A stretch of DNA of 64,000 nt. Source: Thermoplasmata archaeon (GTDB taxonomy: Archaea > Thermoplasmatota > Thermoplasmata > Lutacidiplasmatales > UBA184). Positions 711-7,214 of this stretch are shown here, one piece after another. A program made the position numbers and the translations under genes. How positions within the stretch are numbered: the first letter of the stretch is position 1; each line of letters begins with the position of its first letter. The stretch covers positions 7,264 through 71,263 of the forward strand of contig DASZAJ010000007.1 of NCBI GenBank assembly GCA_035945215.1. Reading direction: 5' to 3'. Below the pieces are notes generated by a model. That model searched no databases and had not been told where the DNA came from. It worked only from the letters and a program-made list of their open reading frames with translations.

Positions 711-1829
711 CTACCATCCATCCCAGCTGGGCTCTGCGTCTACAGGTGCGGGGTTGACGCAACGAACTTGTGCTCTGCCCAGATCGGCTTGAATGAATTC
801 GCCTCCAATCCCCATGGTCTCGAGCAAGACTGCCCGCCACGAACTAGCGTCCGACCATGAACCATCGTCGGGAGGAGGCTCGCCGCCCAGCCAATGAAGC
901 TCCCAACACTGGTCGACCGCGAAATGCCGCTCACACTCGGGGCACCACTGGCCCTCCGGTTGCTTCCAGAAGCGCAAGAGGGGCTGGTTGTAGCCGAATG
1001 TCCCGAACCAAGTCAGTACCTCGGTCGAGCGTAGGTCGGCAGAAGGCGAGATACCCCCTACGGACCCCATATCGATCAGCCGATCCTGGACTCGGTGCTT
1101 AGGAGTCAGTCTCGTTGCGTGCGAGAGACAATAGGCCAAAGTGGCGCACAAGGAGCGCCGAAGACCTAAGTTTCGGATTATCCAGTTAGAGCGCTTCCAT
1201 CTCGCGGGCGGAACGATCCATCCGTCCCCTAGGAGATGGAAATGGGGTCCCTCTACGCACAAACCCTCCCCATGCCAGTTGACTCGCAGCCCGTGGTAGA
1301 TCGCGCAACCGCCTCTGAATCCCCACTCCTTGGAGATCTTGTAGGCGCGGCGACGCAGCTGATTGTAACCGCCTCGGGTTTCTGGGAGGTCCCAGAGCTC
1401 TGGCGGAGGAGCGACTACGACGTGAATCAGCCCGACGGGATACGCGGCCCCGTCGAAAATTGGCGCGGAGTCGAACAGTTCCCAGAGCCGCCCCCAGCGT
1501 TTTTGCTTCCCTAGGATCTCGGCGCCTGCCTGTAGCCGTTCTGCCGCGTCAGCTACTGCCCGCGAGAGCCATCCTACCCGCCAGTGAGTCGCACAGTCAA
1601 ACCGGTGACAATCGAGACGGGTCAGTTTGTAATGGATCTCTCTGAACACTCGGTTGCGAGCGTCGTGGGCGATCCGCCGATAAGCGGTCGTGCGGCCGCA
1701 CGACGTTCCGTGGCCTGGAAGCTCAGCCGGGCCAAGCTGGCCGGAATCATCGAACGAGACACCAGAACGTGGACCCGAGGGATCCGCTTGAGAAAACGGC
1801 CGGACTGCCTCGAGCGCAGCGGCGCTCAC
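711..1829 (-). CDS. Replication-initiator / HUH-endonuclease-like protein of a mobile element
   Basis: The 372-aa ORF contains a HUH-like motif (PHFHLLGDGW) preceded by a Y-x3-K motif (RRAYKISKEW), plus a C-terminal Cys pair (CPECERHF). It lies between the zinc-finger and ATPase genes, next to the tRNA 3' end. Confidence 0.5.
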   Translation of the reverse strand: MSAAALEAVRPFSQADPSGPRSGVSFDDSGQLGPAELPGHGTSCGRTTAYRRIAHDARNRVFREIHYKLTRLDCHRFDCATHWRVGWLSRAVADAAERLQAGAEILGKQKRWGRLWELFDSAPIFDGAAYPVGLIHVVVAPPPELWDLPETRGGYNQLRRRAYKISKEWGFRGGCAIYHGLRVNWHGEGLCVEGPHFHLLGDGWIVPPARWKRSNWIIRNLGLRRSLCATLAYCLSHATRLTPKHRVQDRLIDMGSVGGISPSADLRSTEVLTWFGTFGYNQPLLRFWKQPEGQWCPECERHFAVDQCWELHWLGGEPPPDDGSWSDASSWRAVLLETMGIGGEFIQADLGRAQVRCVNPAPVDAEPSWDGW

Positions 1830-5901: not shown

Positions 5902-7167
5902 TCACCCCCTTCGACTGAGCGGGTAGCGAAGTATCGCCGCCACGCCGCCGAACGCCTTGGCGAGCATCTCCCCTTCTTCGCTCTCCGCCGAGACCATGCG
6001 GACCGCGGCGCCCGACCCGGTCGCCTGCCCATAGAGCTTCTCGACGTAGTCTTCGTTCGATGCCGTGCTCAGCGCGACCGCGTGGCAATTCGGACAGGGC
6101 TGTTCTCGCAGCGCATCGACCGCGTCATCGGTGACGATCCGGGTGAACCCCTGTCCGCAGTTCCCGCACGTCAGGCCCACGATGCGCCGCCGCAGCCCTT
6201 CCGACAAAAGGAGGGTCGCGACCGCCCCGGCTTCGAGCGATCGGGTCACGTCCCGCTCGCCATACGCCGCGAGGCCGCTCTCGGCCTTGCGGATCTCGAC
6301 GAGGAGCCGCTGGACGAGCTGTTTTTCCTCCGTCAGTTCGAGGCCGTGCAGCGTCTGGGTCGCCTTCTCGACGAGCTCCTTGAGCCCGTAATCGTCGGTG
6401 TACCCGACGTCGAAGAGGGGCTGGACCACCTTCTGCTGGAGTTCGTAATGCATGTAGGCCTCCTTGTAGAAGTACTCCTTCGTCGCCCCAGGCCCGCCGA
6501 TCAGGATCCCCTTCAGTTCCTCCTTCTTCGGGAGAAACAGCTCGTTGGCCATCTCCCCGCACTTGACGAAGAACTCGTGCGCCGCGTGCTCGATCATCCG
6601 CTCGAAGCGGTGGGCGGATTGCCCGCCGCGCCCGTGCTTGCTCGGCACCAGCGACTGGCGATTCCGAAGGACATCGATCCGCTTGCCCCGGAGGAAGCCG
6701 ATCGTGACCTCGGCGCGGTCCATGACGATAAGGCCCCAGATCTCGGGCTCGTGGACCATGGCGAGCAGCGGGTCGAGGAAGAAGGTCGAATCGCACCGGT
6801 ACAGGTACGTGTTGAGCGGTTCCGGCGGTTCCACGATGAAGGTGACCGACTCGGATTTGTCGGCGCCGACGGCTTTGCTCCCGACGAAGAACGCGACGCC
6901 GGTCGGGGGAGGTTCCTTGAACGCGCGTACCCGCCCCATCAGCGATTCGATCGCCCACATCACGTTCTTGCGGGTCGTCCGGCTCTTGATGTTCGAGCTC
7001 TGCGCGTATTCGTTCCGAAGGTACGACATCGCGTCGGAGATCTGCTTGCCCGGCGGGACGTACAGGGAGATGAGCTCGGTCGCCCGACCCTTCGCGGCGG
7101 CGATCTCCTCGAGCTTACGGCGGAACGAGTACCGTGCGAGCTGCGGGTCGGAGGGGGCGGCGCTCAC
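5902..7167 (-). CDS. prf1: peptide chain release factor aRF1
   Basis: 421 aa. The N-terminus (YSFRRKLEEIAAAKGRATELISLYVPPGKQISD), the NIKS motif (QSSNIKSRTT) and the GGQ motif (HGRGGQSAHRF) match aRF1/eRF1. Confidence 0.9.
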   Translation of the reverse strand: MSAAPSDPQLARYSFRRKLEEIAAAKGRATELISLYVPPGKQISDAMSYLRNEYAQSSNIKSRTTRKNVMWAIESLMGRVRAFKEPPPTGVAFFVGSKAVGADKSESVTFIVEPPEPLNTYLYRCDSTFFLDPLLAMVHEPEIWGLIVMDRAEVTIGFLRGKRIDVLRNRQSLVPSKHGRGGQSAHRFERMIEHAAHEFFVKCGEMANELFLPKKEELKGILIGGPGATKEYFYKEAYMHYELQQKVVQPLFDVGYTDDYGLKELVEKATQTLHGLELTEEKQLVQRLLVEIRKAESGLAAYGERDVTRSLEAGAVATLLLSEGLRRRIVGLTCGNCGQGFTRIVTDDAVDALREQPCPNCHAVALSTASNEDYVEKLYGQATGSGAAVRMVSAESEEGEMLAKAFGGVAAILRYPLSRRG

Positions 7168-7214
7168 AACGAGTCTCGCCGATCGCCCTGGTCAGGACGG
7201 GGGGGTCGGGGCGA

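Follow-up and report, generated by a model that had tools for sequence, protein, structure and literature searches.

Near the beginning of a 64,000-nucleotide stretch of DNA from a Thermoplasmata archaeon (contig DASZAJ010000007.1, positions 7,264 to 71,263; the whole stretch is referred to here as the window) is a gene that we call Rep, at 711-1829 on the minus strand, and the question that it raises is which tyrosine of its 372-amino-acid product would cut DNA. In a preliminary description of this open reading frame (ORF), AYKISK (residues 162-167), PHFHLLG (195-201) and CPEC (296-299), all of which are present, were read as parts of a Rep-like protein in which a catalytic Y-x3-K motif precedes the HUH motif, that is, as an enzyme with a non-canonical, relaxase-like motif order. 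Y163 does lie upstream of the HUH motif, 33 residues before H196, and YxxxK occurs once in a protein that contains 8 tyrosines and 8 lysines. The order appears reversed, however, because the wrong tyrosine was chosen, Y163 and not Y233. We put at roughly 0.85 the probability that Rep is a single-tyrosine HUH endonuclease that starts rolling-circle replication of a small element integrated beside tRNA-Arg(CCT) in the genome of a Thermoplasmata archaeon.

The gene was delimited by an ORF call and its product identified by homology as an HUH-superfamily rolling-circle initiator of the SNJ1 RepA type. The cysteine pattern C-x-R-x-x-C-P-x-C...W, which we took to be like that of the IS91-type zinc-binding domain, led to a comparison with Natrinema virus SNJ1 (Simuloviridae; AY048850.2), whose gp11-12 (protein WBE14015.1) is annotated as 'rolling-circle replication initiation protein RepA'. 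When a profile of 81 family sequences was aligned to SNJ1 RepA with hhalign, the match had a probability of 98.3% and an E-value of 1.3e-14 over 231 columns, and the family hidden Markov model (HMM) A2 scored 68 bits against the same protein in hmmsearch. The match is specific, since control alignments of the family profile with gpA of phiX174 and with the Rep of the alphapleolipovirus HRPV-1 reached only 1.6% and 0.5%.

Rep and SNJ1 RepA have in common, in this order, PG(H/F)G...CG...H...C-x4-CPxC...W, HxxxSPP, an invariant histidine, PH-U-H-L-(I/L)-G and Y-x-LSH, with about 21% identity over the aligned columns. The N-terminal module of Rep aligns with 'IPGFGSERETCG..H..C..CPRC..KW' of SNJ1 RepA, and within it the conserved C74-x4-C79-(P/A)-x-(C/H)82...W87 pairs with 'CGQSMCPRCAPKW'; the strand that bears H136 aligns with 'HHSVISPPEELY', H179 with the histidine of 'ALYHSW', the HUH motif with 'RPHVHLIG', and the Y233 motif with 'VVYALSHCA'. 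The two proteins also differ: SNJ1 RepA is longer (481 amino acids), it has an acidic insertion between the third histidine and the HUH motif as well as a different, acidic C-terminus, and it has no clear counterpart of CPxC, of which only C296 aligns. Each is the product of an archaeal mobile element; that of SNJ1 RepA is an episomal haloarchaeal virus, that of Rep an element integrated into a Thermoplasmata genome at a tRNA gene.

Replication of SNJ1 proceeds by the rolling-circle mechanism and depends on its HUH-superfamily RepA (profile of the International Committee on Taxonomy of Viruses, PMC12642351), and an integrated thaumarchaeal element with an SNJ1-like Rep has been reported (PMC6563490). 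The proposal that the protein could represent an uncharacterised family of initiators or relaxases is therefore not upheld: through its homology to SNJ1 RepA, Rep is a divergent, database-unannotated member of the known SNJ1 RepA-like (IS91-related) family, and it reveals no new enzyme topology.

In the alignment of 81 sequences the only invariant columns are C74, C79, H179, H196, H198 and Y233. The counts that follow are from an hmmalign alignment of 155 sequences, in which the denominator varies by column, and every feature for which window coordinates are given below is on the minus strand, as is Rep itself. The HUH motif, H196-F-H198 within PHFHLLG (1227-1247), lies on a predicted strand at residues 191-203, and each of its histidines is kept in all 155 sequences, so that this part of the preliminary description, a Rep-like HUH protein, stands both on conservation and on the homology to SNJ1 RepA. 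On the strand at residues 171-183 is H179 (codon at 1293-1295), which is kept in 154 of 154 sequences and is the likely third metal ligand. H136, in the first core strand IHVVVAPP (residues 135-142; 1404-1427), which occupies the motif-I position, is kept in 147 of 150.

Downstream of the HUH motif is a helix with the predicted catalytic-tyrosine motif T230-x2-Y233-x-L235-S-H237-A238 (1116-1142). Y233, 35 residues C-terminal of H198, is the sole invariant tyrosine (155/155), and it is accompanied by L235 and H237, each in 152 of 155 sequences; a tyrosine that follows the HUH motif in this way gives the canonical Rep order. The tyrosine of AYKISK (1329-1346), on the helix at residues 152-168, behaves differently: Y163 is present in 103 of 153 sequences (67%), with L, V, R, E and I among its replacements, and position 167 is lysine in 82 and arginine in 43 of 153. 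At the two positions SNJ1 RepA has Q and E. The histidines singled out beforehand were thus invariant and Y163 and K167 variable, and we regard AYKISK as non-catalytic.

If Rep belonged instead to the relaxases or Mob-like enzymes, or to a new class of initiator, with its catalytic Y163 on the N-terminal side of the histidine motif, the moderate conservation of Y163 and of lysine or arginine at position 167 (82% together) would be accounted for, and the conserved H179, H196 and H198 do recall the three-histidine cluster of relaxases. The replacement of Y163 in one third of the members and in SNJ1 RepA, set against a Y233 that is never replaced, makes this explanation hardly credible. No MOB or relaxase family of Pfam matched the query or any of the 81 members, and no conjugation genes are nearby.

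The predicted structure places the same residues where a single-tyrosine HUH endonuclease would have them. In an AlphaFold2 model built from the family alignment (pLDDT 78, pTM 0.74) the elements follow one another as a strand (135-140, with H136), a helix (152-168, with Y163), two strands (171-183, with H179, and 191-203, with the HUH motif), a further strand (217-223) and a helix (227-236, with Y233), and a model of the domain by itself agrees with this order. As modelled, this is the order of the HUH fold, with the tyrosine on the helix after the HUH strand. It is thus Y233 that the model puts on the helix expected for the catalytic tyrosine; Y163 is on the first helix instead.

Two further groups of conserved residues flank this core. 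The N-terminal Cys/His module (residues 37-87; 1569-1721) consists of LPGHG, C44, H55, C74-x4-C79-x2-(C/H)82 and W87, with C74 and C79 each in 143 of 144 sequences, C44 in 129 of 134, H55 in 109 of 131 and a cysteine at position 82 in 134 of 144; it is a putative zinc-binding, DNA-binding domain. In the C-terminal region CPEC (933-944) supplies a cysteine pair at the knuckle of a β-hairpin, C296 (153/153) and C299 (150/151), flanked by predicted strands at 293-296 and 301-304. Of the zinc cluster CPEC...H...C suggested for this region only the pair is retained in the family, since C308 and H312 are not conserved and position 312 is mostly E or D. Taken together, the five Cys/His residues conserved in the N-terminal module and the C-terminal pair C296/C299 would imply one or two putative zinc sites.

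Some homologues have in addition a CxxC...CxxC zinc-ribbon insert that follows the strand of H179 and precedes that of the HUH motif (for example 'HPSRLHCEKCG...CVCGC...SPHFH'), which indicates that the loop between these strands tolerates insertions. The long acidic insertion of SNJ1 RepA is in the same loop.

IS91-family transposases (Zn_Tnp_IS91, PF14319, and Y2_Tnp, PF04986) likewise have an N-terminal Cys-rich zinc-binding domain ahead of an HUH core, and SNJ1 RepA is reportedly homologous to them, to judge by the title of Wang et al. 2018. Could Rep then be a rolling-circle transposase of the IS91 type, which moves its own DNA segment by one-ended transposition? Zn_Tnp_IS91 is the commonest sub-threshold Pfam match in the family (10 of 81 members, best E-value 0.038, against a cutoff of 26.3 bits), and SNJ1 RepA itself matches it at an E-value of 0.25, but neither Zn_Tnp_IS91 nor Y2_Tnp was matched at the gathering threshold by the query or by any of the 81 members. 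The tyrosine motif of the IS91 family has two catalytic tyrosines (Y-x3-Y type); in Rep, by contrast, a single predicted catalytic tyrosine is followed by a histidine (Y233-x3-H237). Whereas IS91 is an insertion sequence, the genomic setting of Rep is that of an integrase-bearing element: within the 64 kb of the window its gene occurs once, it is part of an operon with other genes of the element beside a tRNA gene, and related loci encode a separate tyrosine integrase, which an IS91-type transposon does not need. An IS91-type transposase is therefore improbable here, and the link of the family to IS91 appears weakly, in the sub-threshold Pfam matches.

From what has been shown, the homology to SNJ1 RepA, the invariant residues with their order and the mobile-element context, the following course of catalysis can be inferred for Rep. 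After excision of the element, its double-strand origin would be recognised jointly by the putative zinc module (Cys/His) at the N-terminus and by the HUH core; a divalent metal ion (Mg2+ or Mn2+), held by H196, H198 and probably H179, would polarise the scissile phosphate; and Y233, whose helix faces the strand of the HUH motif, would cut one DNA strand and become joined to it by a 5'-phosphotyrosyl link. The free 3'-OH could then prime displacement synthesis by a host polymerase, and after one round Rep would rejoin the displaced strand. One helical turn after the tyrosine, Y2-type Reps have their second tyrosine and pC194 RepA has a glutamate. Since H237 is in the same position, one turn after Y233, a role in termination is plausible, and it may assist either there or in metal binding.

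It might be objected that Rep no longer cleaves DNA and serves, after inactivation or exaptation, as an HUH-like protein that binds DNA, for example a regulator. Two conserved Cys/His modules would suit such a protein, and the integrated element, of which the window holds only a part, may be decaying. The predicted catalytic residues are nevertheless intact, and their strict invariance over 155 homologues as divergent as these (about 25-40% identity) indicates selection on catalysis; moreover, the ORF is full-length and the same sequence was found in two independent sequencing runs. We consider this explanation very improbable.

The preliminary description also linked the gene, tentatively, to archaeal elements, and here the surroundings agree. 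The GC content is about 0.60 in the first ~1.65 kb of the window and about 0.69 in the rest, and the genes on the minus strand follow one another as tRNA-Arg(CCT), a 200-nt spacer, the small gene ORF78, Rep, and a P-loop ATPase gene that runs off the edge of the window. The tRNA gene (2269-2343; identified with ARAGORN and Rfam) is the probable integration target and element boundary. A tRNA-Arg(CCT) gene is adjacent to the Rep element or to the conserved block described below at five independent loci and in three different relative orientations (the window; L003, 13734-13808; L004, 6641-6716; L049, 7281-7355; L112, 2676-2752). Two Logan contigs with an identical Rep (L007 and L008) both stop at window position 2284, 15 nt inside the 3' end of the tRNA, and because they break there, as at an att repeat, they suggest an att boundary. 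In L001 and in the contig of the homologue P0002 the Rep gene is followed, 2-2.5 kb downstream, by a tyrosine integrase gene (Phage_integrase). The lower GC content, the adjacent tRNA-Arg, and the integrases and tRNA genes at related loci place Rep in an integrative plasmid or provirus, the integrase-bearing part and far att site of which are outside the window.

Upstream of the ORF78-Rep operon there is a non-coding block (2060-2170) in which CAACCCATTC is followed by a GC hairpin (2102-2121, with an 8-bp stem and a GCGA loop). Like blocks precede the Rep operon by 50-250 nt in L001 (~9745), L002 (~5684), L003 (~9847), L004 (~6799), L006 (~455) and L049 (~7167-7197); no Rep operon of the Thermoplasmata clade that was examined lacks one. 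Its consensus is [CT]AAC[CT]CnTTC, with an invariant AAC-C-TTC, followed by a GC-rich hairpin, whose sequence varies and whose loop is often of the GNRA type, and then by a T-rich tail; the 64-kb window holds a single copy. With its nick-like sequence and co-varying hairpin the block is, speculatively, a candidate double-strand origin, for which a promoter or 5' untranslated region and a terminator are the alternatives.

Several observations weigh against the reading of Rep as the initiator of an integrated rolling-circle replicon. For the catalytic tyrosine of SNJ1 RepA itself the assignment comes from the alignment, not from mutagenesis in print. Foldseek comparisons of the full and the trimmed HUH-core models with the Protein Data Bank (PDB) gave no significant match (best E-value 0.2); the matches include IS608/ISDra2 TnpA, Vientovirus Rep, pMV158 RepB, SIRV1 ORF119 and nanovirus Rep, and these HUH domains are interleaved in the list with generic ferredoxin-like folds (S6, CutA1). 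Because the window edge truncates the element, neither an integrase nor an att pair is visible within the window, and no att direct repeat was found in the 64-kb window or in L003. Finally, a metagenome scan revealed similar blocks in the high-GC contigs L060, L085, L105 and L112, where a distance of 2 kb or more contains no Rep gene, and because several high-GC matches thus have no downstream Rep, the assignment of the block as an origin remains speculative.

Structural comparison with the BFVD collection gave closer matches, to initiators of another kind. The top matches there (E-value 2e-4, probability 1.0) were proteins from metagenomes of single-stranded DNA phages, and the named ones were replication initiators of Microviridae; E-values ranged from 2e-4 to 4e-2 and the TM-scores were low (0.25-0.39). 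These phage initiators (phiX174 gpA-like, REP_ORF2-G2P), the best structural matches of Rep in that collection, have the same order of HUH motif and then tyrosine, but they are without the Cys/His modules and show no sequence-profile relation to Rep, and gpA uses two tyrosines.

Two known families of initiators were tried and set aside. Rep-Arvir/DUF7845 (PF25227) comprises initiators of betapleolipoviruses and archaeal plasmids, which occur also in Thermoplasmatota and have a TBP-like (Rep_trans-related) fold with acidic metal ligands and without an HUH motif (PMC13107129). Like the family of Rep, it is a recently recognised Rep family of archaeal integrative viruses and plasmids, but identity with it is ruled out, since none of the 81 members matches PF25227 and Rep has an HUH core and a different fold. 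Rep_1 (the pC194/pUB110 type, PF01446), one of the profiles by which the preliminary description had proposed to place the protein, was matched weakly by 2 of the 81 members (best E-value 0.021) and not by the query.

How large the family appeared depended on the means of search. A word-indexed protein search returned one identical sequence and one protein at 32% identity and no others, whereas an exhaustive HMMER search with a two-sequence profile returned 709 cluster representatives (of protein clusters at 50% identity) at E-values of 1e-3 or below, 310 of them at 1e-10 or below. Those members for which a source is named are 'hypothetical' proteins from metagenome-assembled genomes (MAGs) of Thermoplasmata and Bathyarchaeota. 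There were no matches at threshold in Pfam, PHROG or NCBIfam for the query, for P0002 or for the 81 homologues; a PDB sequence search with the family profiles gave no relevant match; and neither tblastn of the Rep protein against phage and plasmid collections nor blastn of the element DNA against phages gave a match. With profile A2 (query residues ~219-320) one match in the PDB recurred, at an E-value of about 5e-4, to the thumb and fingers of the papain-like protease of SARS-CoV-1/2. It spans YxLxHA ('ETMSYLFQHANL...') and a zinc-ribbon-like Cys-rich stretch; the catalytic residues of the protease are outside the matched region, and we judge the resemblance to be due to chance or convergence.

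The gain is chiefly in annotation: the homology to SNJ1 RepA gives a reading, as rolling-circle initiators of the SNJ1 RepA type, to at least 709 clusters of proteins from Thermoplasmata, Bathyarchaeota and metagenomes that are labelled 'hypothetical', and it extends a Rep family of haloarchaeal viruses and plasmids to non-halophilic, high-GC Thermoplasmata. With the family named, small integrated replicons can be recognised in archaea that have been little studied, and candidate replicons become available for the building of vectors. A broader proposal, which we offer tentatively and hold to be rather doubtful, is that the Thermoplasmata/Bathyarchaeia clade is a distinct, abundant and hitherto unannotated SNJ1-RepA/IS91-like subfamily, with dual Cys/His modules and a Y-x3-H helix, that drives widespread small tRNA-Arg-integrating replicons with an 'AACCCnTTC + GNRA hairpin' origin. 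If this were true, the subfamily would be the missing plasmid-side link between archaeal rolling-circle replicons and IS91-type transposons.

The start of the Rep gene can be fixed by comparison. Its GTG start codon overlaps the stop codon of ORF78 (GTGA, 1826-1829), and the automatic gene call P0001 chose a later methionine; because the homologue P0002 keeps LPGHG (residues 37-41) upstream of that methionine, the long form is the true protein. ORF78 (1826-2062), the first gene of the operon, encodes a small C2H2-like zinc-finger protein (C32-x2-C35-x13-H49-x4-H54, that is, CPLC...H-x4-H) with weak Pfam matches to Zn_SUZ12 and HTH_20, and by the GTGA overlap it is predicted to be translationally coupled to Rep. 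L004 has a weak homologue of ORF78 at the corresponding place (6884-7120). In L001, L003 and L006 the sequence TGCCCGxTCTGC, which would encode C-P-x-C if read in frame, occurs just after the block; an ORF there is unconfirmed.

The P-loop ATPase (1-680; Walker A motif GRETGVGKS) begins 30 nt downstream of Rep, and its 3' part is beyond the window edge. It is 100% identical to the Thermoplasmata MAG protein P0156 and matches no Pfam or PHROG family, nor is it similar to VP8 of pleolipoviruses. Its close homologues number 32, most of them from Thermoplasmata, and include a paralogue of 90% identity encoded by the same MAG (VGX00_01415); in L013 and L014, which have no Rep gene, a homologue closes a cluster of large unannotated proteins beside a serine recombinase. 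This distribution suggests that the ATPase is a module common to different elements, possibly proviruses. The window also encodes aRF1, and from this and the match of the ATPase we take the host to be a Thermoplasmata archaeon.

The metagenome scan for the 'AACCCnTTC + hairpin' block was dominated by an unrelated low-GC repeat. This highly conserved sequence of ~48 nt, 'ATCAACCCATTCGACTCCCCGGTCTGAAGCCCGGGGTATGCTCAGGGT', is found in dozens of sediment-metagenome contigs of low GC content, with one copy in each (L015-L134; for example L024, 3010-3042); it belongs to no Rfam family and is apparently unrelated to the Rep element, having been matched through the common search pattern.

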